Assembly: GCA_035084275.1 (NCBI GenBank)
Contig: CM068746.1
Span: forward strand, 27,280,001 to 27,344,000
Reading direction: 5' to 3'
DNA length: 64,000 bases
Source: Hydrolagus colliei
Lineage: Eukaryota
Positions 4,166 through 54,663 of the stretch are shown here, one piece after another. The translations under genes and the position numbers were made by a program. The notes below the pieces were generated by a model. That model was not told where the DNA came from. It made no database searches and was given only the letters and a program-made list of their open reading frames with translations. The first letter of the stretch is position 1. Every line of letters starts with the position of its first letter.

Positions 4166-6524
4166 TCTATTGTGATCAACTCACTAATGTGTTCAGTTTT
4201 TTATTCTTTTTCATTTGAATAATGTGCGTACTACATTAATACAGACTCACTATTGAGGTCAATCTTGGAGACCTTCCAACCTGTTGAAGCACTATATCAA
4301 GTGCAAGTAATGTATCATTTTATTATTATGAATTAAGTGTAAGCTATTCACTGCTCAAGTACAGCATACATTGGTAAAATGCATAGTTTGTAACATGTTG
4401 AATAATACAATCTAATTTTCTCCAAATAACAGAAACATAACAAGTCTTAATAGAAAAATGCAGTTCATCGAAAAAAAAGACATTGAATCCACGATCCCAA
4501 AACAGCAGGATTGCAACACAAAGTTACTTGAACAGGAATAATCCGATGCTGCTTAACTCACATTCCTATTAAACTGGGTTCCTGTGTGCCTGTTCAGGTA
4601 GTCATGTACTGGCCAACAATTCCCCAGAATTGGTCATTCATTTCATGGCTGTTGGTGGGTCATTGTTGTGCACAAATTGGCTACTGCATGTGCTCACAAA
4701 TTACAATCACTGCATTTGCAGTGAATCATACAAAGCATTTTGAGACTCCTCCTGACGTGAAAGGCATTTTATCAAATGCAGAGATTGTTACTATCCCAAA
4801 CATTACTCCCTCATATCTCAGTAGTTGAAACCCTTTGCTCCTACTGTTCCATGGAGCAGATCCCTGAGTTACTCTGTTATTTTATGGGGGGGCGGGGGGG
4901 GGGATTCAGTAGTGATTTGGGTATTAGGGCCAACATCTGCTATTTGGGAAAATCTACTGAGGTGTGCCATGGGGAAGACAGAGTCAGCCAGTGAATCTGA
5001 AAACCCCTGAGGAAAGGAAGAGTAATGGAGAAGATGAAGTGAAAATATGCAAGGTGTCTTAAGATTATTTCACCAACAGGCCACCAGGGAACGATGCACC
5101 CTCTGTAGACGACAAGGGATCTGCTTCACATCCCCACTCGGCTCCCCAGAGATTAAATATTCACTCTGGTAAAGAGAAACATCATGTTACAAAATAAATC
5201 TTTGTAGCTGTGACTCCATTCACAGATTCCAACAGGAGGTAGTAAACACACATATACACACACAGACACAACAACAAGGCTTGCTTTGTGCTTTCACTTC
5301 AGTATGCCCCTGCTATGTAAATAAATTACTGTGTGTAAAGGGGTCCAAAATAATTTGATTGTAGGTCAATTTGAGGTTTTAATTCAGTTGAATTTTCCCT
5401 TAAAATCCCACGTGATGCAGTTAAGAATTACAGCCATTCTATGAATGATGCTGGATATCCCGGGGCCATATATTCTAATGGATTTGTGCCTGCAGAATAC
5501 AGTAACTACACCTTACAATAAATCCTGCGAAGCGCTTTGAAACAACCTCCCATCATAATGGCCCTATATATCAACTGTGAGGATCATTATTATTTTAGGA
5601 TTATTTCTTATGCAATATACTTGTTTTAGTGACTACTATAAGATGTAGTGCTTTATCACTTTATTCAATGGCTCACGCAGGATTTTACTGTCAAGTTCGT
5701 TGAATGCATTTGAAGGCAACACTAACACCATATCTGTATCCTGAGCATTAAAGCAATGAATGAAATAATTATTATGTTTCAAATGTTATCTTCTGTCCAG
5801 AACTTAAACAGAACTTAAGTGCTATTGACTTTTCTCTTTCTGTCATAAATATCATAGTAGTTTTTGACATTCTGTCGTGTACAAATAAATATTAATTCCA
5901 TATGGAAAGAAAATCACTGGAGCGTAAACGGATTTCTGTTTTTATTGTGGTGAATTAGGAGGCACAGTTTAAAAAAAGAAAGTGTTTCAGAAGCACAGAG
6001 AATCTTCAAATGACGCAGCTTCTTCATTTTTAATAAAAATAAGTTGCTTTTCTTCCATGAAAGTTCAACTGTTGTATTCTTGAGTTTATTATTTTTCTGT
6101 CACTGAGGGAATGAAGTCAAGCTTCAAAGATTTTAAGTGTAGTAGCTATTTTATTGATTAGCTATGTTAATAATAAATGCTAGTTTAGCCACAGAAGTAG
6201 TTTGGCTTCCACCAATGAAGTGATTAGATAGGCAAATTGGGGAGCAATGCCAAGTTTTAATGAAAACAAATATTTGACTTCTTAACAAACTCTTAATTTA
6301 TTGATATAAACTACCCTACAAAATAAGAAGCACAGTATTCTGGTTCAATAGAGCTTCCAATCCCGATCAACTTTGATGTGTTAAAAAAAAATTGGTGTAG
6401 GGGGGCGGGGTACTATTTTATATTTCACTTTTGACTTTTAATAATTATCGTAATTAATAATTGCACAAAATAGTTCGAAGTGCCAAGTTCAATTATTATT
6501 GAATTGACCATATGGAATACATTT

Positions 6525-6738
6525 TGAAACAAAAACAGAAGTTGCTGGGAAAACTCAGCAGATCAGGCAGCATCCATGGAGAAAGGAAAATGAGTCAATG
6601 TTTCGGGGCAATGACCCTTCGTCAGAACCCGAAATGTTGACTCACTTTCCTTTCTCCATGGATGCTGCCTGATCTGCTGAGTATTCCCAGCAACTTCTGT
6701 TTTTGTTTCAGATTTCCAGCATCTGTAGTATTTTGTGA
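6525..6738. mobile_element. Penelope-like terminal-repeat palindrome with decayed hammerhead core
   Basis: Inverted arms at about 6525-6606 and 6628-6710. Minus strand reads gttCTGACGAagggtcattgccccGAAAcatt. Flanked by ggaatacattttg (6514-6526) and ggaatatattttg (6739-6751). Confidence 0.75.
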
Positions 6739-6904
6739 GGAATATATTTTGGTTTGGCAGGGCAAGGGTTAACACAATACAGAAATTGCCTACTGGGGTT
6801 CATAGGCATGAATGACAAAAAAACGCAAGTGTGATTCCTCCCAGAAAATGAAGCGTAAAGAATGCATGTGTGAAGTGTACCTTCAATGTCATTGTGCCAG
6901 ATTC

Positions 6905-7500
6905 GTAGGACTCATTTCTGAGACAGAAAGATGTGGGTTCAATCCTTGCATTTGGTGTTTCAAAGCACATAGCTGACATGCCAATGCAGAGATGCTACGT
7001 TACTTGAAGTCTTATTCTGTTTGTGCCCCTGGCTCGACATTGGGCTCTGCCACTGTGAAGCTCTCCGAGACACTGTCTAGAGTGAAGGGCACTATATAAA
7101 TGCAAGTTTTCACTGCTGTGTGGAATTAGCTGCTGTGTTTCACCCACAAAATATACAGTCAATTAACTTTTCAGAAATTCTGTGCAAAGCGCTAAATCAA
7201 ATGCGAGGATTATTTATTATTATAACTTGTACGCCACTCCTCTAACCGCCCCTTTCACTAACTTAATGCAGGTATGTCGCTTGATCCCTCCATGCTGACA
7301 TTGGAGGTTGTGCCTTCTACCATAGACCCCTAACCTGCCTCAAACTCCACGCCTTGACCCCTCTTCATCTATCATTAAATTCTACCTGAATTCCCACCTC
7401 TTTAACAATGCATGTGGTCACATCATCCTTGTCTCTTGCCCAAGATCCAACCCGACTGCAGCGCAGCGCTCTGAGACACTAACACGGGTGAAGGATTCCT
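6905..7500 (+). mobile_element. Cluster of SINE head, L2 tails, SINE tail and L2 3' fragment
   Basis: tRNA-like head (gtgggttcaatcc), tail gtgaagggcactatataaatgcaag, SINE tail at about 7120-7220, then a degraded L2 3' end. Confidence 0.55.
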
Positions 7501-10039
7501 GTTATGGGAACTTTGGTATCCACCTGAACAAGCAGAACTATTAGCCCACCACAATATCCGAGTTACACGTGCACAGAACTGTACTGTAAGAAGTACACAT
7601 GAGAATGTTCATTGAAAAAAATTACATTGGTGTATTATATGAATTTGATAAAAGTTTAACATGCCCCATTTCAAAGTTGACTTATGTATCCAAAACAATT
7701 CAGATCCTTTTCTGTGTCTAAAATGACTGTAACTATTCCTGGTGCGGGGTATTCAGCAGTACATCAATAGAGAAAATGATTGGTGTGCTGTACCACCATC
7801 ACATTGTTATTTAGAATGAATGTTGTGGAACTTCATACATTTCAATGACTTTAATACTGGTTGAAAATGTGAACTCAGACACATTTTTCATCCTGTTGCT
7901 TAATGCCGTGTAGTGGGCAATTTCAGTGGGTAACTTAATGCCATCAATAAAATTGCAGTCAATTATCTGTGATGTTTTTAAATCGACAATTTGTCTTTTG
8001 CAGTTTATCTTCTGCTCTTGCAAAAGCACCAAAGATCTGGCACTGTTCTACAATGTTGATGCATTAACTCTATTTAATTGTCAGCAGTGCTAATATTTTA
8101 TTGTGGCAGTCAATTAGTGCCCAGCAATGTAACACAAACAGCCATGAAGTCAATGACCAATTTTATCCGGGGGACTGTTGGCCAGGACACTGCGAGAACC
8201 AAGATAACAAGATATCTTGCTCCAAGAATGGAGAACTCCATGTGGGACAATCAAAAATGTTAAATTTCACTCCAGCTTTAACATAGAATAGCAGCAGTGC
8301 AGTCCATTTAAGAAATGATTCAAAAAGAGCACCTGATTATGTCACGAGTGAACATGTTAGCATGAGAATGAACGGAATGGGTACATTTTGTGTTCTTTCT
8401 TGATCTCGTTAAGAAATCCTGCAAATTTGACCATAAAATAGCCAGAGTCGGTGAGTTGTAAATTCCATTACTCCTACAACTTAACCATATTGGTCATGGA
8501 CAACACCTGCTGGTATAAACATTGCTAGGATTCCATGCCACCTGTGAGTTAACTCCCATCGGGTTGAAAAGATTGATTTGATTTGTGGAAGACTAAGACA
8601 GTCAGGATGAATTTCTATGCACTTATCACATCTGACAGAGGGCATCAGTATTGTTTGTGTTTTGGCAAGTCTGGGGGTGGCATGGATGGTGCGGAAGAAT
8701 TAACTCTTCACTTCTAATAAAAAAAGCTGCCCTTTGCAAAAGAGATCAAGCCACTTTAGCTCATGTCATACTATATGATTGAATCGTACTTGTAAACCTT
8801 TACAAAATAAAAGTCTGGTGTTTTTTTTCTCCAGAAAATAAACAAAACTGCTCTTATTCCGTTCTACACAATTGTGCTCTATTCCGACAGCAAATAAGTC
8901 TGGGTTCTTTGCTGACAATATAACTGCAATTGTTCATTCTCGCTCCTCACAGATGGAGGCCTGATGCTACTTATCAAATTGTTTAATCTCCTCCTTCAAG
9001 TATTGCTAGGCTGGTGCTACATTTACTGGATGGCAAACAAATGATAGCCCCAATAGATTTTTAAATGCAAGTTGTTGTTGTTTTTAAAACTATTGTTTAA
9101 TTTTCAATTCTAGACTGCTGCAATAAGCTGTACCATGTGAGAGTGGCAGTGGATTGATATAATTCTTGAATTGCCCTTTCAAACCTATATAAACTTGGTG
9201 TCTTTTACAATTTACTACCCCACGTTCAGCAATGATCAGTCACAGTTTGGGCTGGGGCGCTGGTGTCCATTATTTAGTTAGTATTTGCAATGAAGAAAAT
9301 CTGCTGATATCACACACTTAACCTTCTCAGGACTTTGAAGGGAAATCGCAAAGCAAGCCCAAACCCAATTTGTATAGAACCCTGAGAATTAACTGGGGGA
9401 GTAGAACTTCATCCCAGCGTCTAGTCTAGATTTAACTCCAAAGATTAAAGGCTGACTCATCAGAAATCTCATTCCACATCTCCTTTGAGTCTATTTATTT
9501 GGAATTCTAAATAGATTTAGTTCCAATGGCAAAAGTGGAAGAATCCACTTGAAAGATTTCCTTGGCCTGATAATGTGGGAGAATCGGGAAAATATAGTAA
9601 TTAACTCATTAGGGTTTTTGTATAATTGTAACTCTTCCTTGTATATGGTTATTAAATGCCTTTGAAACAAATGCTCTCAATTGTATAATTCGTACTTTCC
9701 AATTAACTCAAAGTTATGAATGTCGTACACATAAACATACCAGACCTGTCTAATCGTAGTTTCTTCTGGTTTAATTTGTTTCAAAATGAGACTTGTTATT
9801 GATATTTGTTCTTGAATAAACTAGCAGGGTAATCAGGTTATCAACTAATTGCTGATACATTGGCTATATCAACATTGGATAAGTTAACGTTTAAGTCAAA
9901 ACATTGTTAAAACTTACCTTCAATACTGAATGTTCTGGATTATTGATTCATAATGAACCATTGATGTTTACCATCTTATCTTCCTGCTGCTATAGAATAC
10001 TTCTTTGCTTGATTATCTCCCGTTGGATCAAGAGGAGGT

Positions 10040-10170
10040 CGGGGTTGTGAAGGGCAATTTTTCTGACAGATGCCAGGAATTATTTCTGTACAGAGAGAGT
10101 AAATGATAGCTGAATGGGTTACAAGAGAATCATGGTGGAGGCCAGGAATCCTCTCTCAGTAAAGTCTTAA
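10040..10170 (+). mobile_element. CR1 LINE 3' fragment (old)
   Basis: acagatgccaggaattatttctgtacagagagag...gaatgggttac...gtggaggc resembles the CR1 3' region at 32070-32140. Confidence 0.5.
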
Positions 10171-10264
10171 TGCAATATAATTTACAATGCAATTTACATT
10201 TATGCAGTGGCTTTCACAGTGGGAGGATGTCTCAGAACGTTTAACTTTGACTAAATTGCAATTG

Positions 10265-10721
10265 GTCTTAGTAGCATCTAATGACATGTCTGTGTTTTCT
10301 GTATGCTCATTATCTTCTGTATCAATTTATATTTTCTTTAGCCTTAAATCCTTTAAGGAATGGCTGTAATGGGAAGATGGTTGGGTGGGGATTCTGGAAG
10401 GATGAGGTCAGATGATTCAAAGACTCTTTTCCACCAATGCCTCTTTTGTGATCATGCTTTCAAGTCGAGAAAAGACCCAGGTTGCATTGCTTTAGCCGTA
10501 CGCACATATGGTGCAAACATAAATATCCCTGCATCATCAGTTTCACCCCAACTTCATCAACTTCTCTTTATAGTTGCTGGTTGCTAAGATCGTTCAACAC
10601 ATCCACAGTGGATATATTATTCCTAACCATGTTTAGTCTTTGTACTATCTAATGACACATCTGCTTTTTCTGCATATTTATTATTCTCTGTATCAATTTA
10701 TCTTTTCTTTTGTCCTTAAAT
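10265..10721. repeat. Diverged ~85-bp direct repeat pair (10265-10349 and 10636-10721)
   Basis: Both copies read gtctt.gta..atctaatgaca...ttttctg...ctgtatcaatttat.ttttcttt...ccttaaat. Confidence 0.85.
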
Positions 10722-12343: not shown

Positions 12344-12625
12344 ATTCCCCCAAACTAATTTTGTTTGGGGGATTGTTTGCCAGAACCCCAGGAAAAACTC
12401 CTTCTCTCTTTGAATAGTACTGTGGCATTTTAATGTCCATCTGGATAGCTAAATAGGACCTCAATTTAACATCTCATGCAAAGTACGACACCTCTGACAT
12501 TGCCACGCACGCACCGCTTTGCATTGGAGTGTCATCATAGACTATATGGGTTCCCAATCCCGACGTGGGGTTTGAACCTACAACCTTCCAACTCAGAGGT
12601 GAGAGTGCTACCAACTGAGCCAGAC
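12052..12625 (-). mobile_element. Near full-length Deu-domain-type SINE, interrupted at about 12218-12355
   Basis: Minus-strand head tggctcagttggtagcactctcacctctgag...ggttcaaacccc, Deu-like core, and tail atcaaatgcaaggattattatt. Confidence 0.82.
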
Positions 12626-16573: not shown

Positions 16574-16882
16574 AACAATAATAATAATAATAATCCTTGC
16601 ATTTTATATAGTGCTTTTCATGTCTTCTAGATGTTTCAAAGTGCTTCACAGAATATACTGTAAGGTGAATTGATTATATTTGTGGGCACAACGCAGCAGC
16701 CAATTGCGCACAGCAGTGTCCCACAAGTAGTCATAGATTGAGTGACTAAATTATTACTTTTTTTGAGGAATTATTATTAGGTGTGTGGAGTAAGGAAACT
16801 TGCCCAAGGTTTCTCCCTGCCAGGAATCAAACCTAAGTCTCCCGCTTGCGAGGTGAGTGCTCTAACACTGAGCTACAGGACT
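16574..16882 (-). mobile_element. Full-length tRNA-headed SINE
   Basis: Minus strand: agtcctgtagctcagtgttagagcac (A box), ggtttgattcc (B box), conserved body and (TAT)n tail. Confidence 0.92.
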
Positions 16883-18974: not shown

Positions 18975-19325
18975 TACTCAATATCTACTGCATGTTTTGT
19001 GTTCTTACTCCCAATCTGTAGCAGAACCTTGCATTTATTTGTATCAATTTGCCAGTGATCAGCCCGTGAGCTTACCCTATCAAGCTCTCCTTGTAAGACC
19101 TTTGCTATCTCCTTTGATTCACTAAGATGAAAGCAAGTTGTTATTGTTGTAATAAACACAAGAATCAAGAGGGCTCTAAAGCAAACCGTTGGGGCACACT
19201 ACTTACTATCTCCTCCATTTTAATCAAATAGAGACTCGGCTTCTTTCCCTTTAGCCAATTCTGAATTGATGTCTTGCCTTTGATGCCCATTTACCTCAAT
19301 ATTAAAACTTCAGTTTGTGAAGCAG
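18975..19325 (-). mobile_element. CR1 LINE RT fragment (old)
   Basis: Translation LQGELDRVSSRADHWQIDTNKCKVLLQIG matches the CR1 LQxDLDxLxxWxxxWQMxFNxxKCKV motif. Confidence 0.8.
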
Positions 19326-19361
19326 CTTTAATGTGATACTTAAAGTGATATTTAATGTGAT

Positions 19362-19500
19362 TTAGTTCTGACGAAGGGTTGTAGACCCGAAACGTTGACT
19401 CATTTTCCTTTCTCCATGGATGCTGCCTGACCTGCTGAGTTTCCCCCAAAACTCTGATTTTGTTTCAGATTCCCAGCATCTGTAGTATTTTTTGTTTTGC
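19362..19500 (+). mobile_element. Penelope-like terminal-repeat fragment (single arm)
   Basis: Same sequence family as the arms at 6.5 and 52.6 kb, flanked by ttaatgtgat at 19352-19361 and 19501-19510. Confidence 0.78.
19364..19400 (+). ncRNA. Minimal type I hammerhead ribozyme motif
   Basis: AGTT (stem I) - CTGACGA (19368-19374) - A - GGGTT/gta/GACCC (stem II) - GAAA (19389-19392) - C - GTT cleavage triplet (19394-19396) - GACT (stem I). Confidence 0.7.
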
Positions 19501-19569
19501 TTAATGTGATATTTTGTGAAACCCTGTTTGAAAATCTTGATATATACTGCAGTGTGGCTCTCCATAGTC

Positions 19570-19890
19570 AATTCCAGCCTGCTCCACGTCCCCCGACCCA
19601 CCCACCCCACCATTGGCGGGCGAGCCTTCAGCCACTCTGCCCCCAACCTCTGGAACTCCATCCCGCAGTCCCTCCACCTCGAGCCCTCCCTGGGCTCCTT
19701 GAAGTCCCGTCTCGAGACCCTCCTCTTCGACGGTCCCATCGGTCGCTTCAAATCCCCCTCTTTCTCTCAACCCTCCCCATCCCCAACCCCAGCTCGGATC
19801 TGAAACAATGACTGTACAGCACCTCGTCGTCCTCCTGACGTGAAAGGCGCTATACAAGTGTAATTTTGTTGTTGCTATTGTTGTTGTGTT
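19570..19890 (+). mobile_element. L2 LINE 3' fragment with tail
   Basis: Translation IGGRAFSHSAPNLWNSIPQSL...LKSRLETLLF, then gacgtgaaaggcgctatacaagtgtaattttgttgttg. Confidence 0.9.
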
Positions 19891-20084
19891 GGCTGTCATT
19901 TATTAGAATATTTTAATTCTAGTTTTCTTTTTTAAAGAGACTCCATTATTTTTTGTTATTAAGAGGTCTGTAAATTGCCAGATGTGGCCCTGTCATCTTC
20001 CTAAAAAGAAACATGACGACATATTTTGCAATGTGTAAGTGTTATTTTGCTTTTTGCAGGCAATGATCTGGACTAACAATCCAG

Positions 20085-22945: not shown

Positions 22946-22949
22946 ATAG

Positions 22950-29423: not shown

Positions 29424-29511
29424 CCCAGGTAGCAAGCCCATATGGGCCCCATATGGGACAATTTGGGTTGATCCATGCCCATATGGGCCCCACATGGGCT
29501 TGCTACCTGGG
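29424..29511. mobile_element. 88-bp MITE with CCC...GGG termini and 2-bp TSD (CMC/EnSpm-like)
   Basis: 34-bp terminal inverted repeats (32/34), AC directly on both sides (29422-29423 and 29512-29513), and subterminal palindromes cccatatggg. Confidence 0.75.
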
Positions 29512-30033: not shown

Positions 30034-30362
30034 GGAGTTCCTGTAGTTTAGTGGTTAGAGCACTCGTCCCACAAACAAGAGGACCTGGGTTCGATTCCTG
30101 GGCAGGATGAAAAGTTGGGAGAGTTTTCCTCTGTTTACTTAGTAGTCAGTAGGAACCTGGCTGTTAGTTGATTGGTGGATCACTTTTCTGGGGTGATGAT
30201 CCCTTCAAAAATATAAAAATAATTTTCACTCCATGACTGTTTCTGGGACAATGCCGTGTTTCACCCACAAAATAAAGTCAATTTATTTTACAGTATATTC
30301 TGTGAAGCACTTTGAGAATTCTCAAAGACTTGATTAGCTGCTTTATCAAACACAGGGATTTA
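30034..30362 (+). mobile_element. tRNA-headed SINE
   Basis: ggagttcctgtagtttagtggttagagcac (A box), ggttcgattcc (B box) and the SINE tail. Confidence 0.88.
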
Positions 30363-31949: not shown

Positions 31950-33295
31950 GTAGGGACCTCAGAGAGGCTTACAAAACTTTAAATGGGATTGGAATAGAAA
32001 ACCCAGAACAATTACAAGACAAGAAACAAGGGACATAGATTTGGAGTTGGAAAGGGCATTTTTACGTCAGATATCAGGAAGGTTTTCTTTACACAGAGGG
32101 TAATCAACTGACTGGAACAGGTTACCGGGAGGGTAGTTGAGATCAGCTTCTGCCCAGTCATCTGTGGGGTACCGCAAGGATCCAACCTTCGCCCCCTTCT
32201 CTTCTTCACCTATATGCTCCCTTGTGTCATCCGCAGACATGGGGTTAACTTCCACATGTATGCAGGTGACACTGTACTCTATCTTTCCACCTCCAGCTGT
32301 GACCCCTAGTCCCTGATGTTCTGTCAGCTTGTCTGTCGGACATCAAGAGCTGGATGAGGGCAAATTTCCTGCAGTTAAACATCAACAAGATAAAAGCTAT
32401 ACTCTTTGGCTCTCATCAAAGTCTTCTGTCCAACGATTCCGACCTCCTTAACCTATCCGAACTGTCCTTAAAACTCTCCAAACCAATGTGGAACTTAGGG
32501 GTCAGGTTCGATCTCCAGTTATCCTTCCTCACTCATAGCAATGTTTTCTTCCACCTTTGCCAAATTGCCCATCTTTGAAAATACCCCAAGAGCTGTTGAA
32601 ACCCTTGTCTATGCCTTTCTCACCTCTTGGCTTGAGTACTCTAACACTCTCCTCATCGATCTCCCCTCCTCCACTATTCACAAAATTCAGCTTATTCAAA
32701 ACTCTGTCTCCTGCATTCTCACAGTCACCAAATTTTGTACCCTGATTACCCTAGTCCTTGCCAATCTTCACTGGCTCCCTGTCACAGAGCAGATCAACTT
32801 CAAGATCCTTACACTAGTGTCTGATTCCCTCCATTCTTTGGCACCCCCCAAACTCCACTGGATCCAGCCTCCTACCTGTCAGCAAAATTTTCTGCTCCAC
32901 TACCGTGCTTTCAGCCACTATGCCCCAAAACTTTGGAACTCCCTACCTCAACCATTTTGCCTCAACCCCTCCTTCTGCAGCTTCAGATTATCGTCTTCGA
33001 TCGTACCTACGGACACCTTCCCCCTTCTCCTGGCTTGGTCTCGGGCTCCACCATTGTGAAGTGCTCTGAGCTGCCATCCGGCGTGGAGGGTGCATTATAA
33101 ATACAAGTTGTTGTTTTTTATCTGGACTCTGGACACAAAGAGGAAACTAGATAGATGTTTCAAAAGCAGGAGTTTGAAGAGATTTGGGGAAAAAGCACGT
33201 AAATGGGAATGAATGGATTATGCTTTCAAAGAATCAGCACAGGCACAATGGCCTAAATGGCCTCCTTCTGTACCAAAATGTTCTTTGCTTTTATG
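31950..33295 (+). mobile_element. CR1 LINE 3' end split by an L2 insertion (CR1 parts about 31950-32144 and 33120-33295)
   Basis: Left part encodes DIRKVFFTQRVIN..WNRLPGRVVE-like sequence. Right part resumes with aagaggaaactagat and ends in the CR1 tail ggcctaaatggcctccttctgt. Confidence 0.78.
32145..33119 (+). mobile_element. L2 LINE RT/3' fragment
   Basis: [41 protein letters not shown] and APKLWNSLP motifs, plus tail aaatacaagttgttg. Confidence 0.92.
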
Positions 33296-36200: not shown

Positions 36201-36409
36201 TGCACTGTATCAAAGTGTGACTAAGGCTGTTTTAAAGACAGTGACTTAGAGGGATTTAGTGTGCCATATAAAGTAGGTATCTATTACTCTCTGAAAGGCA
36301 CAGATTGTGTAAGACAGACATTATTACCCTAAAAGAAATGAAAAACGTGTTATGAATTTAAATCTTCTCTGTAATAGGTGCAACATCCACAACACTCTTG
36401 ATTAGGTGC

Positions 36410-37155
36410 GCTCGACCAAAAACTCTCCTTCCTCCCCCACATCCGTGCCTTGACCAGCACCGCTTACTTCCACCTGCGCAGCATTGCCAGGCTCCCCAAT
36501 TATCGTACCCCCCACGCTGCCGAAACACTCGTGCACGCGTACATCACCTCAAGGCTGGACTACGGAAACTCTCTCCTCGTCGGCCTCCCCAGTTCCTCCA
36601 TTCACAGGCTGCAGGTCATCCAAAACTCTGCAGCCCGTGTATTATCCCGCACCCGCCTCTGCGACCATATAACCCCCACCCTCGCCCGTCTCCACTGGCT
36701 CCCCATCCTCCAGAGGATCGAGTTCAAGATCCTCGTCCTCACCTTCAAGGCCTTACATGGCCTTGCCCCGCCCTATTTAACCAATTTACTCTCCCCCCTA
36801 CAAGCCCACCCGGACCCTCCGTTCAGCAGGACTTGGCCTGCTCCAAGCCCCCCGCCCGAACCGCCCCTCCATCGGAGGCCGGGCCTTCAGTTTTTCTGCT
36901 CCGACCCTATGGAATTCCATCCCCCAATCCCTCCGTCTCGTTTCTTCCCTTTCCTCTTTCAAGGCCGGTTTGAAGACTTTCCTCTTTGACCGTGCCTTTT
37001 GTTCCACCCCGAATTCTTCGACCTCCCCTACTTGTTTCACCCCTTCCCGTACACTCCCCTCCCAGCTCGGGTCACACGCCTCCTGTGCAGCGCCTTGGGA
37101 CGTCCTCCCGACGTGAAAGGCGCTTTATAAGTGTAATTTGTTGTTGTTGTTGTTG
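36410..37155 (+). mobile_element. L2 LINE 3' fragment, comparatively young
   Basis: ORF AYFHLRSIARL...SRLDYGNSLL...LHWLPILQRIEFKIL with one frameshift near the C-run at about 36795. CpGs are retained, and the 3' hairpin and (GTT)n tail are intact. Confidence 0.95.
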
Positions 37156-39232: not shown

Positions 39233-41030
39233 TAACAATAACAACAACAACTTGGATTTATATAGTGCCCTCCATACCAGATGGCGCCTCAAAGCGCTTC
39301 ATAATAACAGATCCTGGGGCAGAGCCAGGAGGAAGGGGTAAAAGGTGACCAAAAGTGTGGTCAAAAAGATCTTTAGCCAGGTCTTTAGCCATGACCTAAA
39401 AATGGGAAAAGTGGGGGCAAGGTGAAGGGAGTGAGGATTGGAGTTCCAGAGCCTCGGGGCATAGTGGCTGAAGGCATGGCCGCCAATGTGGAACAGAGGA
39501 TTCGGGGACAAGGAGGAGGCCAGACCCAGTCGAGCGAAGGCAATGGGGTGCTATTGTGAGGAGAGAGGGGGTCAGAGAGGTAGGGGGTTGCAGAGGAGTG
39601 GAAGGATTTGAAAACAAGAGTGAGCATGTTGAAATCGATCTGCTCCGAGACAGGGAGCCAGTGAAGTCGGGCAAAGACTGGGATAATTGGGGAGCGAAGT
39701 TTGATACGAGTGAGAATGCAGGCGGCAGAATTTTGGATAACCTGGATTTTGTGAACGGTGGCGGGGAGGGGTGTGGGGAGGGGGCCTGGCGAGGAGGGTA
39801 TTTGAATAGTCCAGCTGAACGATGACAAGTGTTTCAACAACAACAACAACAAAATTACATTTATAGAGCGCCTTTCACCTTGGGAGGTTGTCCCAAGGCA
39901 CTGAACAGTCAGGACGGGACCCGAGCAAGGGAGAGGGGTAGGGCAGGGGGGAGAGGCGGGAGAGAGTTACGAGGGGAGGGAGAGAGTTGGGAGGGCAGCA
40001 GAAGGCACAGTCGAAGAAGAGGCGGAGAGAGCGAGGCAAAGTGACTGTGGGATAGAGTTTCACAGTATCAGAGCAGAGAGCCTGAAAGCCCGTCCGCTGA
40101 TGGTAGAACACGGAGCAGGCCGGAGCCCACTGAATGGAGGGGCCAGGGAGGTATTTATAGTGGGACAACAGTTCAGAGAGGTGGTGGTGGTGGTGGTGGT
40201 GGGGGGGATGGTTTCAGCGGCTTTTGGGGTGAGATATTGGCGAAGACAGGCGATGCGTCGGAGATGGAAGAAAGCGATGCTGGTGAGGGACCAGATGTGG
40301 GGGAGGAAGGATAATTGGGGGTTGAAGGATAATTGGGGGTTGAACCTGACTCCTAAGTTGCTTACGGGTTCGGAGAGTTTTGGGGCAAGGTCGGGTAGGT
40401 GGAGGAGGTAAGAGTCATGGGATTGAAGACGTCAATGAGAGCCAAAGAGTATAGCTTCCGTCTTGTCAACATTGAGCTGAAGGAAATTCGTACTCATCCA
40501 ACTCTTGATGTCTGACAGGCAGGCTGACAGAACATCAGTGGACTGGGGGATCGCAAAGTGAGGTGGAAAAATGGAATTGGATGTCATCCACATACATGTG
40601 GAAGTGTGCCCCATGTTTACGGATGACATCCCCAAGAGGGAGCATGTAGATAAGGAAGAGAAGGGGGCCAAGGATGGATCCTTGGAGTACCCCGCAGGTA
40701 ACTGGGAGAAAGTGGGAGGAAAAGCCGTTTGTGGAGATGTATTTTTCGTGGTTTGTGAGGTAGGACTCAAACCAGGCGAGTGGGGTCCCATTGAGGTGGA
40801 TGACGGAGGACAGGTGGTAGAGGAGGATGGTGTGATCGACTGTGTCGAAAGCGGCAGAAAGGCCCAGGAGGACAAGGAGGCAGAGTGAGCCCTGGTCACA
40901 AAGAGAGGGTAACGTTTTTGACTTTCACAAGTGCAGTCTCTGTATTGTGGGCAGGGCAGAAACTGAACTGGATGGGTTCGAAAAGGGAATGGAGGGAGCG
41001 GTGTGCGCATTCGTTGGCAACAACGCGTTC
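39233..41030 (-). mobile_element. L2 LINE fragment with a second L2 3' piece nested at 39837-40210
   Basis: RT motifs (LSDIKSWMSTNFLQLNVDKTEAILFG; IQNSAACILT; LHWLPV), two separate (GTT)n tails at about 39235 and 39837, and gtttca duplicated at 39831-39836 and 40211-40216. Confidence 0.9.
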
Positions 41031-42100
41031 TAGTAATATATTGGTGTGTGCAAATTAGCTGCCGCATTTGACCAAACATGCAGTAAATATATAAAAAATA
41101 TACTTTGCAACCACAGCTTGCATTTATATATCACCTTTCATCTAGATAGTGTCTTGGAGCACTTTACAATCATTCCTGTGAAGCACTTTGAGACATGTTG
41201 ACTGTGTGATATCATGCTTTACCATTAGTTACAATTTGTCTGTTGCATTTTAAAAAACAGATATTTGTAAAAATGCAATGCGCACTTAAATATGTTTTTT
41301 TCCTCTCAACTTTTCATTTTATTTCACAATGATTGTTCTATTAACATTTCACCGTGTTAAAAGCAACCCACTACTGAAACAATATGTGATGCAAATAATG
41401 GTTGAATGGTTGAAAGACATTTTAAATTTCTGTAGTTCATAATACAGCTCTGTACTGAGTCTTGCCTTTCAGTGCAGATTTTACATTATTGCGCTGACAA
41501 GTAACCAAAAGCATATTGAAGGACAAAAGGCTTATTGTACTACAAAGGCAAGATTACGCATTTATTAAATCAAATCCAACATAATTACTAGTAGTAAAAT
41601 AGAACTGTTTTCAGAAAATGAAATCACCTTGGACCTGCCTAGATCAAAGAGATTGGTGAGTTTCTTCAAATGTGTCAGATTCCCTAAAAGGAATGACAAA
41701 TTAAACTGACTGACATATTGTAAAAATACTGAGTTTAAAATTAAAACATCTGGAATCATTTTCAAAACACTTTTGCCTCATCAGATACTTAGCATTTTTG
41801 GTGTGTGGATGTGTGTATATGTTGGTGGATCAGTGGTTTGAAGTATCTGTCTGGACACAATAAGTGAACGGGTGGATTGATGTGTGATGCATGGAATGCT
41901 AGGTCTGGAGCAAAACTGTTCTTGGTAAACTTTCAAAGAATTAAAGATTTTAGTGCTCCCTTGATGCAGTACTCTTTTTCTCTGTACATAGTTAGTGCAT
42001 TACCTCCTAGATGCTAAAGAACAACCACAAGTAGTTCGAGCATTGTCTTGTAAGCTAGAGTCAGGAAAGTGATGCAGGAATATATGTGTCGCACGTAAGG

Positions 42101-42402
42101 AATAATAATAATCATTCTTGCATTTGATATACAGTAGCGCCTTCTAGATGTCTCAAAGCGCTTCACAGGATATCTTGTACAGTGAATTGACTATAATTGT
42201 GGGAGAAACGCGGCAGCCAATTGTGCACAGTGGTGTTCCACAAACATTGTGGATTGAGTGACCAAATTATTATTGTTTTTTGTGAGGGATTATTATTAGG
42301 TATATGGAGTAAGGAAACTTGCCCAAGGTTTCGCCTTGCTGGGAATCAAACCCAGGTCTTTCGCTTGTGAGGCAAGTGCTCTAATCATTGAGCTACAGGA
42401 CT
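42101..42402 (-). mobile_element. Full-length tRNA-headed SINE
   Basis: Collinear with 16574-16882, including the A and B boxes and the tail. Confidence 0.92.
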
Positions 42403-45490: not shown

Positions 45491-48329
45491 TGGGAGAAGC
45501 TCTGAACGATCATGGTCTGCACCACCTGGCCTCTACTTCGACCCTGACTAGCACTGTCAATAATAAATGTAATGCTTAAATAAATATCAAGTATATGATC
45601 TAGATTTTCATTTCATGACTGTATCCATGGCCACATTGCTAATTACCATTGTACAGTAGTTACAGTGGAGATTCAAGGCTACATCACGGATTGTGTGTGA
45701 ATGTCTGTCGGCAGTGGTATGCACACTTCCAAAGGAAATGTCAGGCTCCATTCGGTGTGAAGTGAACTCTGCAAGTTTCACGTTGCAGGAAGACTTTGAA
45801 AATATTTGATCTAACATATCGAGACTTTAGAAGGTCATTTTTTTCCCTCTCTTTCTTATTATGTAACTGTGGCGACATGCAAGGTCTTTATTCTTAAACT
45901 TTAAGTGATGAAACTATTGTTGTTTGACGGTTACAAATGTTCGCAGAGTAGCTTCACGTTTGTTTGGTGCAGAGCATTCCTAAAATGCCCTGAATTCAAA
46001 GGTGCTTTGCCTTTACAGTCCCAGGGGATGATGCTACCTTCACTTTGTTAAAGATGCAGCTGTTGTACCACGGTAAAGAATGAGCACATCGAAACCATAC
46101 GAAATCTCTCTTTCACGATAGGAATAAAAGAATCGTTACCACAACAACCCGAGCATAGAAACTCTCGTGAGAGTTCTTTCGGCCGTAAGAGGTTATCACA
46201 CCGTGGGTGTGGATCACAGCTCACTTATTGAAAAGAAAGGTGGGGGAGAATCCAAATAACTGAACTGCAGGGCAAGGCTATCCGCCAGGAGCCCTGTCAG
46301 AGCATTAATAATGTGAACAGCGCTAACATTCCAGGTGTTCAAGCAAATAAATGAATGTAAATTGAAAACTGTTGGGACTCGAAGAGAAATTTGAAAACAT
46401 ATATTTTTTGTAATCCTACCCAGTTGTCTTCATACAGTCTTTGGATGTTTCGGACATGGAATATGTCTATTTCAGTCTATGAGTGCAGTGCTCAGTACAG
46501 GGTCCTCCCCAGTTACTTTTTTTTACCATTTGTAAACCCTAGATAAATACTCTCAGGCATCTGGTGGGCCCCACAAATTGCACACACCTGCCTTAAAAGG
46601 CTTCCAGGTGTTATGGTTGGTGTCTTTGTGCATTGTGTGTAAACTTAACAGTGAGTCTTGGAAAAAAAGCATAATTTTATCAAAATTACATTACATGATA
46701 CAAGAGCGATTATCTGACAAACCAGCTCGTCACATACAACAAGGTTCATTCCAATATGTGCAGATGTTCCATTTAGAGTCTTAGTTTCCACAAGCATTTT
46801 AGCCAGCAGTGGCGTACAGTGTGAGCTCATCACTGGATTGAACATTGTTGTTCATCTACCCAAAGCAGCAAGCAGTCGAGGCTATCAATCTCCCTAAATA
46901 CAAAAATTAGGTACTCACTTCATAGCTGTTGTGCAAATTGACTGCTGCATTCACCTACACTAAACTTCATAGTAAATCCCCGTGAACCGCTTTGAAATGT
47001 CTCGATGACACAATGAGGTGTTATATGAAATGCAATAATTATTATTATTGTTATATTATTATAAATTGCTCTCAAACCTGATGAGGAATCTAAGATTTTT
47101 TTTAAAAAAAGTAACAAATTAATGTCAGAAATCGGATATTCATAGATTGCCATATGCGTTCAGAAATACGTTGCTCAGGCCATGAATTTCCTCTTCAAAC
47201 GTGCCTTCTGGTGGAATTTTGGCTTAACCAGGGACCACAAAAAATTCTTAGGATTTGTATGCTTTCTACAGGGCTGACATATTTTGTGGACTGAAATTAA
47301 TCAGGACTTTTGCCCTCAGTGGCATCACTGTGCAGTAAATGCACTAAAGCCACACTATGAGTATTGTTTCTTACTTAAAACCACTAATGTCACTTTCTAT
47401 ATCAGTTCAGGACCTAGTGTAATCCAATGCTGTAAAACCATTGCAGTGGGAGCAGTAAGGCCCTGTTTGCTCTTAAATAAGAATCTGCTTCCCTCATTTC
47501 CACCTGCAGGTTTGGTAAATATTCTCACTCATTGCTATGGTCCAGTAAGAATTGGTTGCTGCCCATGACAGCTGCTTTAATTTATAGTTGTGGCTTAGTC
47601 TGCTCTGTTTTCTTAACTGTTGACAAGAATGTCAATGGAAAAATTTAGTCAGCTACATGGTCAAACACAGTTACTTGTTTACTGAGCAGGAAAGAAGTGC
47701 GTACAATTTGGATTCACATATAATCACAATTATTTAAAACAAAGATAAATCCATTATCACAATGATTTGATAATTTAAAGCAAATAAATAGAATTTCAAT
47801 TAACAATTATTTCTCAGGTTAACTTTGTCGATATTTTGTGATTTTGACTTGCCAGTCTATTCAGCAGGAAAACTTCTCATGTTTGACTTATTCTAGCAGT
47901 TTATGGATTTTTTCCAAACCAAGTTGGCTGTAAACACACTTGTGCAAATATTATACATATATACAAATATATAAATATAATGTATAAATATTTATAAATG
48001 TATAAATATCATGTATCGTTCTCAAAAATACAGTAGTTTTCCTAATACAGTAGTTTGCAATGCTGCATGAGGACCTGAGCTGGGGTTGGAAGTCGAGAGG
48101 GGGCAGGAAGAGAAAGATGACTGAAACTGCTGTCAAGGAAATGTGTTTTGAGACATGTCTTGAAAACGGAGAGGAGGAAATCGGATCCAAAAATATTTGA
48201 TATAGTGGAGCAGGGCTTAATTGCCAAGAGGAGCAAACAGAATAAAAGTTATAAAATACCTAGATACAGTACTTTGATACTTTTATTCAGAATATATACG
48301 TATAAATGACTCGGAAGAGATAATTTCTC

Positions 48330-48560
48330 ATAATGTGGCATTGGCTAGTGATACCAAGCTATGTGACTAGGGCGAATAATCCAAGGAGGATAAATAGGAT
48401 TCAAGACGATCTGGACCAATTTAAGCAGATGGGCCAAGGAGTAGCAGATGGATTTTAATGTTGACAAATGCAAGGTAATGCTTACTGGAACAGAGAACAG
48501 TAAACAGGTGCACAGATTGAAGGCTTATTCATTAGCAGAAGTTGCAAAAGAAAATTATAA
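48330..48560 (+). mobile_element. CR1 LINE RT fragment
   Basis: Encodes DTKL...IQDDLDQ...WAKE*QMDFNVDKCKVM. Confidence 0.8.
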
Positions 48561-48589
48561 ATTGTTCACTGAGGGTTTCCAGTTAATGT

Positions 48590-48900
48590 GAAGATGCTGT
48601 CATCTTGATGATACTAATCCAATGCCTTCCTCAACTGTCTCCCCATCTCCACTATCCACAAACTCCAACAAAATCAGAACTGTCTTTATATACTCACCTG
48701 CTCTAAACTCCATAGTCTCATCACACCAGTCATGGCTAGGCTCCACTGATTCCCTATCACAGCACGGATCATCTTCAAGATTCTCACGCTCATCTACAAA
48801 TCTGTTCACACCCTGGCACTTCCCTATTTCCTGCTTACTGCCCACTCCAGCACTGGCCATCTCCGCTTGGCTGACTCTGGCCTCCTACTTGCCCCTCCTC
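48590..48900 (+). mobile_element. L2 LINE fragment (degraded)
   Basis: ggctccactgattccctatcacagcacggatcatcttcaagattctcacgctc corresponds to LHWLP...RIxFKILTL. Confidence 0.65.
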
Positions 48901-49199
48901 CTCATTTAAAAAGCAATTTGATGCTGTATTGGGGTGACGGTAGGGTGGATGTTCTGGAAGTTTGAAACTGGATGGACCAAAGGGCCTTTTATATCCGTGT
49001 GAATTAGCAGAATATACTTGCGTTTCAGGTGTGAGTGAGTTATTCGATGGATAAGAGGGTGCTAGGAGTTCACAGTCTGATGTAAACTATTCATCTTACC
49101 ACAATGGGTATGCAGATCTTGAGAACCTGAAGTGGAATGGCAATTAAATCCAGAAGGAAGGTGAAATAAGTTTAGTTCAGTTTAAAGCATTCTTGCTTC

Positions 49200-49570
49200 T
49201 GGGTAAGAAGGTTGTCAGAATTTGAACTCACAGCCTAGACTGACCCACAATTGCAAGAGAGCATTTCATTGTTAGATGTGCCATCTTTCAGATGTGAGAT
49301 TAAACAGGGGTCTCATCTGTCTGTTTCCAGGCAGATGTCAAAGATCCCATAACACCACTCGAAAAGAGGAATGAGTTTCTCCCAGTGGTGCTCTGGCCAA
49401 CAATCCTTCAGATAAATTGCTCATTTGCCTCATTCATGGCTATTTATGGGATATTGCTAGTGCCAATGAATGCCCTATTCGCTTATAGAAAACATCACTG
49501 TACTGGACAGTAATTACCGTGAAATGTTTTGAGATATTTTGACGTGTAAGGCACTGTAAAAGTTTGTCTT
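49200..49570 (+). mobile_element. Deu-domain-type SINE
   Basis: gatgtgccatctttcagatgtgagattaaacagggg...aaaagatcccataacacc core plus tail. Confidence 0.72.
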
Positions 49571-49675
49571 ATTGCTGATCGCTAATGCTGTGTTACATGT
49601 ACATGAAAGCTATTGTTCTGGGGTATATAATGTATAAAATAATTATCCTGTGGTTGGTAAAGTGTATCAGTCACA

Positions 49676-49991
49676 TTAATAATAATCGTTGCAATTGATA
49701 CAGCACTTTTCATGTTTTCTAGACGTCTCCAAGCGCTTCATATAATATACTGTAAAGTGAATTGACTGTATTTTTCTGGATTAAAATGCAGCAGCCTATT
49801 GGACACAGCGGTGTCCACAAACAGTCGTGGATTGAAATGACCAATTTCTTTTTTTTTAGGGATTATTATTAGGCTTGTTGGAGTAAGGGACTTGCCCAAA
49901 GTTTTGCGCTTCCTGGAATCGAACCCAAGTCTCTTGCTTGTGCCCCGAATGTGAAAGGTGCTCTACAAATGTAATTTTGTTGTTGTTGTTG
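49676..49991 (-). mobile_element. tRNA-headed SINE whose head abuts a plus-strand L2 tail (about 49943-49991)
   Basis: SINE tail, body and B box on the minus strand, then gtgaaaggtgctctacaaatgtaattttgttgttgttgtt. Confidence 0.85.
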
Positions 49992-50619
49992 AGTTGCAAG
50001 ACTCCACAATGCCCAAAAAGCAAGAGCAGGGATACTGAGGAGTGATTATCTGATAGTAATCTGATGACAATCTATTCACTACCATCATAAAAATATGAAG
50101 TTTAGAGCTGTTAGTTATGAGGGTGACTTAAAATAAACACAGCGCTTGGGTGTTTTTGTTTTAATCCAGCATGTGCTGTTAACTTCTCAATTCTTGTCCA
50201 CCCACATGAAGAGCTTTAAGATGTCCTCCCGATCTGAAAGGCTCTATCAAATGTATGGATTATTATATTAAGTGTTTGTGTCTTTTTGCTGACAGGTATA
50301 GATTGGGAGAAACTCCCTTCTCTTTTTTCCATCTTGCTGCTACGTTAGAATTTTACCCCGAAGGATCAACATAATCACTACAAATTAGAAAGAAATAATT
50401 AGCTGTTGACTGTGAGGAAACAGCACTGGTGCCAATATGTACAGTGTTAATGTAATGCTCAGTCTCAGATAGCCACCGAAATCAGAGGCATACGCATGTA
50501 AATAATTATTTGGTTAAACTGAAAGGACTTTTCTGCCTTACTGAACATGCAAACTATGCGCAAAGCATTTTCAGGATGAATGTTCCTTCCCTTGTTTGAG
50601 AGAGGCTCTACCATGTGAC

Positions 50620-50945
50620 TTCAAGCTTGAGTCTAGGCTGATGCTCCAATACAGTGCTGGGAGAGGTGCCAATTTGTGCACAGCAATGCCTCACAAAAGC
50701 CATGAAGTGAATGATTAATTTTATCTGGGGGATTGTTATCTGGGAGAAACTTCCCTCTCTTTTCAAATAGTGTGTTGGGATCTTTAATGTCCACCTGAAC
50801 AGGCAGGCAGGTCCTCCACCAATGCAATGTCCTTCTCCCCCCACTACACTCTGAATAAACTCTTAAATCTCAACCGTGAGCCTTGGAAATTGCAGCCTTC
50901 TGACTCAGAGGCAGGCGAGTGAGTATGCTGCCAACTGAGTCGGGC
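50620..50945 (-). mobile_element. Deu-domain-type SINE (rearranged)
   Basis: Core gggatctttaatgtccacctgaacaggcag and head tgctgccaactgag. Confidence 0.65.
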
Positions 50946-52525
50946 GGTTCAACCTCTTGATGCTATTATAGCATTAGCTTTGATCTCAAGCATAAGGGAG
51001 GAAACAATTGGTCAAATCACAAAGAAGAACCAGGGTCAAATAAGCTCCGGTCGATCTCTCCATGTCTTGGTAGTTTATTCCACAGAGAGTTTAACATTAT
51101 TATTGTGTGCATATGGATTATTGTAGATATTTAGAATTTGATGTGGTTTGAAGCTGACATGCTGGATGATTACAGCGGCAGACCGTAAACAGAATACTGA
51201 TCCTCTGTAGAAGAACCTGAGAAATTGTATTTGTTAATAGCTGGGCACATATTCGTTATTTGAAACAACATCCATTTTTGAGAGGTTGCTGAATTCTAAA
51301 TGCTAAATTGCACTTATATCTGCTCAATTTGGGTATATACCGTAAAAAGAAATCCCTGATATGATGAATGGAATAAGATAGTGAAATGAAAATATCGCAA
51401 GTAAGGGAGGGAATAGGGTGGTGTTAGTGTGGGGGGTAAGATAGGGGTAAAGTGGATATAGGATTGTGAATAGCGTGTCAGGTACAATGCTACACATATA
51501 TAACACCAGTGATAATTATCAGATTAACCCAAGAATTTGATCAAAAGTAGTCAATGGCTATCACTCTGAGGATGAGGATGAACTTTCTCCTCCCTCCAGT
51601 TGCTTGGCAGTGATAGCTTCAGTATTGTCTGCTTTTAACGGGATATTTACCGGATATAATGAATATCACCTATAATAATGTAAACTGTAACATTTTATAT
51701 ATATAAAAGTATTTCCTGTGAAGTACTTTGACACGTGCTCCTGATATGAAAGGCAAGGATTATTATTATACCAAAATCTGGACAGTTTTGAGCTGTAGGT
51801 TGTGGGTTGGTTCTGGTAATTCTGATGTTTCCTCATTGTCAAGGAGTAGATAGAGCAAAGGAGTATTATGAGTTAAGTGCAGGGTGAGAGGATGGGGCTT
51901 GATGGTTGAGTGACCTTTTCCCATTTATTCTTCCATTCTCAAAACCACCAGAAACTGAGAAAATGTTTGTTCTTTCAGTCCCCCCAAAAAAGATTCGAAG
52001 CTCAGAGGTGAAAGGAAATTCTCTAGCCCATTATTTTTCCAGTTCACTTGCCCAAGCACAGAAATGAACCTAAGACCGGAAATCCACTTTGTCTATTTTG
52101 CCTTAAAATTTAAGATTGTGCAAAATTGTGGAAAATTCTGAAGAAACCATTTTCCCAAGGCCTTAAGAATAACTGGCCTCCAGGATCAAAGAAGATTAAA
52201 ATGACAAATCGATGTTACAGTCTCAGACTCGGTGGAATTTCATGTCTTTTTTAAGACACACATTATATATACATTACAGGAAGCGCTGCTTATTGATACT
52301 AGTGTGCCGATGAAGATGACCAATCTCATCTTGCTAATGTCAGGGTTGCCAGGCAACCCGAAAGCATGCTTATATATAAAGATTGTCTTTTAAAAAAGCA
52401 GGTTTGCATTTGCACTGTTGCACTTCTGAAATTTGGACAGAAGATGTAAGAACACTGATACTGTATAAGAAACTAGTGAGCAGCGTGATGTTTTTCTTTA
52501 GGTAGAAGGTAGAAGTTGTTCCAGA

Positions 52526-52791
52526 AAAAGAAACACAAAATATTGCAGATGCTGGAGATCTGAAACCAAAACAGAAATTGCTGGGAACACTCAGCAGCTC
52601 AAGCAGCATCTATGGAGAAAGGAAAGTGAGTCAACGTTTCGGGTCTACAACCCTTCATCAGAAATTGAACTTGATCAGAACTCTGAGTTCTGACGAAGGG
52701 TCGTGGACCCGAAATGCTGACTCACTTTGCTTTCTCCATAGATGCTGCCTGACCTGCTGAGTGTTCCCAGTGATTTCTGTTTTTGTTTCAC
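52526..52791. mobile_element. Penelope-like terminal-repeat palindrome with two opposed hammerhead cores
   Basis: Left arm on the minus strand (core 52633-52661, CTGATGA...GAAACGTT); right arm on the plus strand (core 52690-52718). Flanked by aagttgttccaga (52513-52525) and aagttgtttcaga (52792-52804). Confidence 0.8.
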
Positions 52792-54663
52792 AAGTTGTTT
52801 CAGATTTGGACTCCTGTCAGATGTGCTTTGGCAAATCAGACATTAGATGCACAACCCCACAGGGTGCCCTGCTCAGAGCAACATAGTGATCAGCTCTCAG
52901 ATGTACGGCAGCTTAGGAAGCAACATTATGCCATGTCAGTGAATATGAGAGATCATTTTAATCCTTTGTTCAAAACTGAATAAAGAAATATAGAGGAGTC
53001 TTCGGGACTCGGACTCACCCCTTAATCTGCCTTTAACTCCTAGATGGATTTTCTGTGTTAAGAATAAATCTGCTCTCGGGCTGTGATCAATGTTACAAAA
53101 AGCTTGGAATTTACTGAAATTCTCTGAAACAGAGAACAAAATTCTCTGTTTCAAAATACACTGAAGTAAGAAAAAAATGAAATCAAACGTTTCTCATGTT
53201 TGCCCCGGTTCTGTTGTCTGAAAGAAATGGCCAGTTTGGCAAAATCAAACGACGTCTTCCCACCACCAAAGAAACAAAAGCAAACTGCTCCCGTCTGCAG
53301 CATGCAAAGGGCGCCTTTCCAACCATTTCATCTTTTATTAATTCGGATTTTACAGACTCTTAATTATCAGGTTAAAAAGAAAGAACAAAAACCTACAAAT
53401 TTAAAGTTGGGTGGGAGGAGAATGGGGAGGGAAGTGATAGAGGGAGAGGGGAGTCACAGGGGAGGGAGGAATCAGCTCCCAGGACCTGTAATGTAAAAGG
53501 GAAAAATAGTCAGCTGAATCATTTTTAAGCCCCCCCATCCTCTCAAAAAAAATTCATGGGATTGACTACGTCTGCGGCTTTTTTGTGTGTGTCGCAAATT
53601 GGAAATGATCATCTGAGTTCATTTTTCTTTCTGTGGCCGTCGCTTCAGAATGGAAAGCCTGCCTTTGCCATGCATATCAGATCAGCCCTGCTACGACTTC
53701 TTTGCACTATATTATTTGGCAATCATAAATTTGTAATTTGCATGAAATTGCTTAATTAAAATACAGTCACTAGGGGTATTAATTTCTCTTGGCAGTTGGA
53801 TGAACCAAATGCGGGACCACAGAACATCCTGTCAAACGTAGCTATAAAATAGTGCAAAACGTCCCTTTTTTTCCCCGATTGTCAGAAATAGTTCCTTTAT
53901 ATATATATATATAACTGGATATGCAAACATACACTTAATTGTAATGCGTTGCAAAAGGCAGTATTTTGAATACTGAGCACAAATAGAAATCCTTGGTGAA
54001 GCATGAAATAAAGACAGATTTGAATTTCCCATCTTCACGTTTGAATATCTCCGCACCCTGCATTTCCTACCCTTTTGTCTGAAATATCAAAGGGACAGCA
54101 TACGTGTTAACATTTTAATAATTTCAAAAGCTACAAAAGAATGGGACAAAGAAAAGGCTGAATGTACTGAAGTGGCACACATCAAATGAAAGAGTATTTT
54201 TCACGGTGCTGCTTAGGACTGTTTTGACTGGATTCAGAACCCTTGTACCATTCACAAGCTACAAAGACACTCACAGTGATGTGGAGTCAAGGCCTAATTA
54301 AAATCCTTTAACAGATTGAAAGTCCAAGGATTGACACACATTCAAGAACTACAGTTCAAACAGGCTTGTAGATGGCAGAATCAAACGGCTCGAAAGTGTG
54401 GTTTTGCTGCCCTCAACAGCTTCCCAGTGTAAGCACGCCACCCAATTTGTGAGGGAGTTAATTGGCTCTTTGATGTCTCAGGCAAGGTGTGGGAAAAGGA
54501 TATGAAGCCCTTTTGCTACAGGTTCACTGTTTATTTTTTTTTAAAAAACCTTCGCTGTCTCTGTTTCCCCGTCACCTTGCTGTTATCCTATATCACACAT
54601 CCTCCCTGGGTCACAATTTTTGGACTAATTTTCACTTGCTAATTTCCCAGCAGAAAAGTGGGA

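Follow-up and report, generated by a model that had tools for sequence, protein, structure and literature searches.

A window of 64,000 nucleotides from the Hydrolagus colliei genome (contig CM068746.1 of assembly GCA_035084275.1, forward-strand positions 27,280,001 to 27,344,000; the window is this whole stretch, and positions below are counted from its first letter) contains three short units that carry a hammerhead ribozyme motif. On their anatomy, these units are probably the hammerhead-to-tail terminal segment of an endonuclease-bearing Penelope-like element (PLE), inserted by the PLE machinery in the manner proposed below. The units themselves are ordinary insertions of the known PLE-end kind, and the one unusual point is a focused 5' edge: the 5' ends seem to be concentrated at the first bases of helix I of the hammerhead, with upstream sequence that is mostly unrelated. 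The hammerhead is carried along as part of the PLE end and does not set this main edge.

Anatomy of the three hammerhead units

The three related non-coding units of the original prediction were re-located by sequence and hold five arms in total (Table 1). A search of the window with a profile of the five arms recovered exactly these five, at E values of 5e-35 or better, with the next match at E 0.48; pairwise identity among the arms is 84-94%, and no reading frame runs through them. With the hammerhead unit numbered from +1 = 19364 in unit 2, four of the five arms begin 2-4 nt ahead of the CTGANGA box and the fifth begins at the 3' strand of stem II, as had been claimed. A head-to-head inverted copy is present in two of the three units (units 1 and 3), and within each palindrome both arms carry the same private variants (at alignment column 68 for unit 1 and at columns 55 and 89 for unit 3), as expected if both come from one source. 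As read directly from the sequence, the antisense 8-mer in the centre of unit 3 and the beginning of the inverted arm together form a small hairpin.

The 3' ends fall at two fixed points, about 71 and 104 nt past the predicted hammerhead cut. The two inverted arms stop at alignment column 105 (..TTTCA), a feature absent from the original prediction, and are therefore referred to as tail-less; the other three arms extend 28-35 nt beyond this column, and this extension is the tail. A predicted 8-bp helix (19418-19425/19475-19482) joins the tail to the middle of the unit. This pairing is kept in all three tail-bearing arms with no compensatory change, and is impossible in the tail-less arms.

Direct repeats had been described at the borders of all three units. 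Those of units 1 and 3, at 13 bp with one mismatch, hold up well against chance, being equalled by none of 1486 and none of 1487 random position pairs, respectively. At unit 2, 4 of 1489 random pairs do as well as the 10-mer described there (score 10), for which a 12-bp repeat with one mismatch (19352-19363/19501-19512), directly adjoining the unit, is the better reading; the top-scoring flank pair there is another one, a 15-mer at 19339-19353/19500-19514, equalled by none of the 1489 random pairs. As the target of unit 2 (19328-19363) is a period-12 tandem mini-array, with three copies on the left and one on the right, its repeat may partly predate the insertion, and this target-site duplication (TSD) is the least secure of the three. 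The rebuilt targets (6494-6771, 19332-19530 and 52493-52824) resemble the 3' end of the element itself, with longest exact matches of 9, 10 and 13 nt that were equalled by 52, 22 and 3 of 600 random stretches; this likeness, a post hoc observation, may reflect a preference of the endonuclease or priming by homology.

Table 1. Coordinates of the hammerhead units, their flanking repeats and the decayed reverse transcriptase fragments in the window (LINE, long interspersed nuclear element; RT, reverse transcriptase)
Feature	Position	Strand	Remarks
Unit 1 left target-site repeat, 13 bp	6514..6526	.	last 2 nt also match the tail-less end of the element
Unit 1 inverted arm	6527..6628	-	starts at +2; core with mutated 16.2 and one broken stem II pair; ends at tail-less site
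Unit 1 main arm	6627..6738	+	starts at +22; 28-nt tail; 2-nt overlap with inverted arm
Unit 1 right target-site repeat	6739..6751	.
Unit 2 left target-site repeat	19352..19363	.	10 bp exact, 12 bp with one mismatch; inside period-12 mini-array
Unit 2 single arm with tail	19364..19500	+	starts at +1; sole arm with complete minimal hammerhead
Unit 2 minimal type I hammerhead	19364..19400	+	helix I 19364-67/19397-400; core 19368-74; extra A 19375; stem II 19376-88
Unit 2 hammerhead, segment after stem II	19389-96	+	GAAAC-GTT; predicted cut between 19396 and 19397
Unit 2 3' tail, 33 nt	19468..19500	+	predicted back-pairing with middle of unit
Unit 2 right target-site repeat	19501..19512	.
Unit 3 left target-site repeat, 13 bp	52513..52525	.
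Unit 3 main arm	52526..52665	-	starts at +3, or at +1 with one substitution; core intact; 35-nt tail
Unit 3 centre	52666..52685	.	20 nt, including 8-nt antisense copy of +1..+8 at 52675-52682
Unit 3 inverted arm	52686..52791	+	starts at +1; core mutated at 15.2/16.1; ends at tail-less site
Unit 3 right target-site repeat	52792..52804	.
Decayed LINE RT and 3' fragments	430-1305, 32112-33056, 36362-37124, 39388-41130, 19573-19900		RVT_1 in three frames

In unit numbering, helix I of the hammerhead pairs +1..+4 with +34..+37, the core box occupies +5..+11, the extra A +12 and stem II +13..+25, and the cut is predicted after +33. The full set of minimal hammerhead features (CUGANGA and GAAA..NUH boxes, an extra base at 9/10.1, G10.1-C11.1, a helix I of 4-5 bp and a palindromic 15.2-16.2) is complete only in unit 2. 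The string GAAACGTT is kept in just two of the four arms with a whole core, and in the remaining two the 15-16 pairs are disrupted by CpG-type changes. Variation of the stem II loops with conservation of the pairs had been proposed; the loops do vary, and one of the arms has lost a stem II pair. Covariation was considered as support for the fold and rejected, with none of the 17 pairs changed on both sides across the five arms and several of the changes being CpG transitions. CpG-type damage to the core in two of four arms, together with the lack of compensatory change, points to neutral decay after insertion, so that the loop variation is no sign of selection. Folding z-scores for four arms and four isolated hammerheads ranged from -1.8 to +0.9, which is unremarkable, and the stability of the fold is therefore no evidence. 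As the palindromic units carry their cores on opposite strands, one transcript of such a unit cannot form the dimer that a minimal hammerhead needs. An Rfam scan of the window gave no hammerhead match at E values up to 1, and returned only tRNA-like heads of short interspersed nuclear elements (SINEs) and two weak microRNA (miRNA) matches.

The Penelope-like derivation put forward in the original prediction is supported by this anatomy, that is, by the minimal hammerhead, the inverted copy, the one-sided tail and the TSD-like flanks. PLE insertions are described as having a high degree of 5' truncation, an inverted 5'-truncated copy and a tail of 30-40 bp at one end (PMC8557442), and rotifer PLEs as having inverted pseudo-long terminal repeats (pLTRs), TSDs of 8-10 bp, a 31-bp tail on one copy and palindromes at the junction (PMC3846280). 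The units share with the endonuclease-bearing PLE insertions of these accounts (PMC3846280, PMC8557442) the head-to-head inverted 5'-short copy, the one-sided tail of about 30 nt, the short TSD and the small palindrome at the inverted junction. Unlike those insertions as described, the units have no open reading frame (ORF) or internal sequence and have their 5' ends concentrated at one point, and their TSDs are 12-13 bp long compared to 8-10 bp in the rotifer cases (PMC3846280).

The hammerhead itself shares a 4-bp helix I, an extra base after position 9, G10.1-C11.1, the lack of a helix III and a palindromic 15.2-16.2 with the minimal hammerheads of metazoan PLEs, as set out in PMC4209133, whereas its stem II has 5 bp compared to the 7-8 bp given there for Schistosoma. 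That source describes minimal PLE hammerheads as mostly single motifs or close pairs on opposite strands, at thousands per genome. For the Poseidon element of Anolis carolinensis (PAc), two internal start sites of reverse transcription are reported to bound the tail, the main one 85-92 nt past the cut, and in the account given, insertion occurs without a need for cleavage and no RNA reads start at the cut (PMC11167929). When layout rather than sequence homology is compared, PAc and the units have in common a hammerhead followed by two fixed 3' ends about 55-105 nt on, and AT-rich targets; the PAc segment as described is the start of an ORF, whereas no frame runs through the arms here, and the 3' ends are U-rich here compared to AC-rich in PAc (PMC11167929). 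Pattern scans elsewhere yielded no loci in viral contigs or prokaryote genomes, and the five loci from metagenomes were all chance matches of 22-23 nt in GC-rich DNA without the hammerhead core. Searches of the open-access literature, as distinct from repeat databases, brought up no paper that deals with this family or with 5' breakpoints located at helix I.

Position of the 5' edge across contigs

Contigs of four public runs (X5, X6, X12 and X14), one from another sample of the window's organism and three from other organisms, were aligned to positions 19050-19650 at 80% likeness, and the LINE piece at 19573, which we take to be of L2 type, served as the control for the contig analysis of unit 2. 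Contig positions are those of the rows listed, which for loose ends number 24 of 1158 and for joints 15 of 55. The hammerhead-end family is very abundant in this animal: summed depth over unit 2 was 0.8-6.3 million compared to 61 on the unique flank in X5, and the family apparently has about 10^4-10^5 copies, the depth being a rough sign and no true count. The depth ramp at the 5' side of the unit was rejected as a measure of truncation, an identical ramp being present in the L2 control.

Among the rows listed, loose ends just before 19364 were found in 430 contigs of X5, 335 of X6 and 81 of X14, with flank agreement of 0.40, 0.38 and 0.45, respectively, and a further 176 loose ends lay before 19365 in X6, with an agreement of 0.35. 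The L2 control, which does continue upstream, gave an agreement of 0.63-0.77. In simulations, random flanks gave 0.32-0.34 and mean extensions of at least 50 nt gave at least 0.73, and an agreement of 0.40 needs at most about 20-30% of copies continuing for 30 nt, or a decay with a mean of about 6 nt. The low agreement upstream of +1, set against the control and the simulation, therefore indicates that the 5' edge is focused and not spread along a long element.

Seven of the 15 joint rows listed are opposite-strand joints, and in four of these seven one arm lies at 19364-19366. A direct, partially tandem arrangement is found in none of the three units of the window, and two go-back joints occur among the 15 joint rows listed. 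Inversion centres in contigs (X5 19407 to 19368; X6 19399 to 19368), as well as the unit 3 centre at 52666-52685, hold extra pieces of the extreme 5' end, which suggests fold-back or repeated re-priming at the template end.

The original prediction had tied the boundary of the units to the ribozyme. The edge is indeed focused near the hammerhead, and the part of that claim that does not stand is any setting of the edge by cleavage, as the edge lies 33 nt upstream of the cut. Cleavage after +33 would strip the core, and arms begin at +1 to +3; this main edge is thus not a ribozyme-cut end.

Proposed insertion route and competing explanations

Insertion by the PLE machinery would start with staggered nicks 12-13 bp apart in AT-rich DNA; the TSDs are observed, and the enzyme would be a GIY-YIG endonuclease. 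RT would then start inside the RNA, either at the end of the tail or at the tail-less site some 30 nt upstream, a step suggested by the two fixed 3' ends seen here and the two internal start sites known for the anole element. Copying would cover about 105-135 nt and end at +1, where helix I begins, or no more than a few bases from it. Extension of one nick would give a single arm, as in unit 2, and extension of both would lead to complementary DNAs (cDNAs) that meet head to head, as in units 1 and 3, with small losses, micro-overlaps or extra fold-back pieces; this structure is observed, and two primers would be the route to it.

The stop at +1 may correspond to the template RNA's 5' end, with transcription starting in the terminal repeat and the arms being run-off copies, a reading that we prefer but hold tentatively and would place somewhat below even likelihood. 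The template may come from a dedicated non-autonomous master or be the 5' end of the mRNA of the autonomous element itself. Internal promoters in the terminal repeats of PLEs are described in PMC2377424. The consensus of the loose ends plus +1 reads CCC-A-GT and fits the initiator consensus BBCA+1BW as given in PMC5287114, as do 5.8% of the A's in the window.

Several points weigh against the focused edge, the run-off copies or the PLE assignment. The initiator match is short and was noticed post hoc, the rows listed are the fraction of the total given above, and assembled contigs collapse or break in repeats, so that copies continuing into a long uniform parent are under-counted. X12 had no loose-end row before 19364 among its six rows listed. 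The edge is not absolute, as a minority of longer copies share 12-22 nt upstream, and the agreement values fit a steep decay no worse than a fixed start. Contigs of the four runs showed no empty site for unit 2, with flank cover containing holes in X6, X12 and X14, and of the two junctions of unit 2, the 5' one occurs in contigs of X5 and the 3' one in contigs of X6. Finally, the 234 window frames of at least 62 aa gave no GIY-YIG match, and with no RT plus GIY-YIG partner in the window, the assignment to PLEs is based on anatomy.

The main rival to the run-off reading, and close behind it although less likely than not, is ordinary 5' truncation, very steep in this case, of a long autonomous PLE. 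There would be no RNA end at +1 under this explanation, and RT would fall off at the hammerhead fold or at an upstream C-run, or the edge would be a splice junction. A geometric decay with a mean of 6-10 nt yields an agreement of 0.40-0.46, the upstream consensus of the longer copies (..CCAACATGCCCC, which is not the tail) recurs in three runs, the start of one arm is at +22, and the range from +21 to +95 holds several joints. The CCCCAG before TTCTGA resembles a splice acceptor. An intron of Penelope in D. virilis is described as ending at the 5' end of helix I (PMC4209133). Set against steep truncation, the 176 loose ends of X6 at +2 have near-random flanks (0.35 compared to 0.33 simulated), and their number is far above the roughly 15 expected for any other row if, by rough arithmetic, the 6316 partly aligned X6 contigs span about 290 rows. 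The exact repeat of +1..+8 in the centre of unit 3 also suits a real template end.

Non-LTR (long terminal repeat) retrozymes, in which tandem units would self-cleave as dimers, circularise and be copied by a rolling circle, are a very unlikely source of the units. As described in PMC7229834 and bioRxiv 10.64898/2026.07.22.740005, these elements form head-to-tail tandems with a hammerhead in each unit and a circular RNA; the units resemble them in being small, non-coding and PLE-related with a type I hammerhead, and dispersed monomers are described there as well. Retrozymes are reported from a chondrichthyan and as deriving from PLE ends (bioRxiv 10.64898/2026.07.22.740005). Among the rows listed, a head-to-tail return from 19501 to 19364 occurs in one X5 contig, opposite-strand joints link +1 with the cut position 19396/19397 in three contigs, and a single contig returns to 19397; this pattern was noticed post hoc, and the cut-site joints of X5 and X6 are perhaps one locus. 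Unlike the retrozymes of these accounts, the units are single or head to head and begin upstream of the core, and with the main 5' edge 33 nt upstream of the cut, the unit length is not cut-to-cut. The hammerhead is of the minimal PLE type and not the canonical type described in PMC7229834, and the letters upstream of +1 are not those of the tail, which argues against a 137-nt circular template. The label "retrozyme-like" in the original prediction is therefore not supported: none of the three units is tandem, the edge is not at the cut, and the upstream letters differ from the tail.

A palindromic miniature inverted-repeat transposable element (MITE) moved by a DNA transposase would account for units 1 and 3 as long inverted repeats flanked by direct repeats, but is extremely improbable and largely excluded by single-arm copies, as unit 2 is a single arm with a flanking repeat of its own, the arms are unequal with a one-sided tail and hence without symmetric terminal inverted repeats in every copy, the centres differ among units and among contigs, and the hammerhead, which is typical of PLE ends, is a feature at the level of RNA.

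Returning to the run-off reading, a wider and decidedly speculative extension, which we consider unlikely, would be that solo minimal hammerheads, of which such genomes hold tens of thousands, are run-off cDNAs started internally at the tail sites nearest the 5' end of the RNA, copied to the transcription start and integrated like strong-stop DNA, with a minor second class of arms beginning at the ribozyme cut. Joints at the cut position in a few contigs, which possibly share loci, give a hint of this second class. If this were true, insertion junctions would be a fossil map of the 5' ends of PLE RNA, as well as the first in vivo sign of minimal hammerhead cleavage during the PLE cycle. How inverted PLE copies are made, and what role the minimal hammerhead plays, are stated as open questions in PMC8557442 and PMC11167929. 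With apparently 10^4-10^5 copies that are short, end at two fixed 3' points and have a focused 5' edge, the family is a natural data set for breakpoint counts, which could tell whether templates end where transcription starts, where the ribozyme cuts, or at no particular place.

Other repeats of the window

The window has a GC content of about 39% and contains an assembly gap at about 54660-54930, with 268 N in total. It is non-coding except for RT fragments, with three RVT_1 matches in a Pfam scan of the 234 frames of at least 62 aa; the LINE and RT fragments (Table 1) are presumably of L2 type, as judged from their motifs. SINEs headed by tRNA are numerous, with copies at 4097-4162, 16816-16879, 30039-30108 and 42331-42402 in addition to many partial copies, and their tails are similar to the ends of the L2-like fragments. 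The left flank of unit 2 holds two short low-copy repeats (19070-19130 and 19220-19290), which have a depth of about 10-25 times single-copy in X5 and are present in all four runs. A small strong palindrome at 29427-29508, with arms CCCATATG/CATATGGG, is unrelated to the hammerhead units, shows a weak match to an miRNA model of Rfam and is possibly a MITE.

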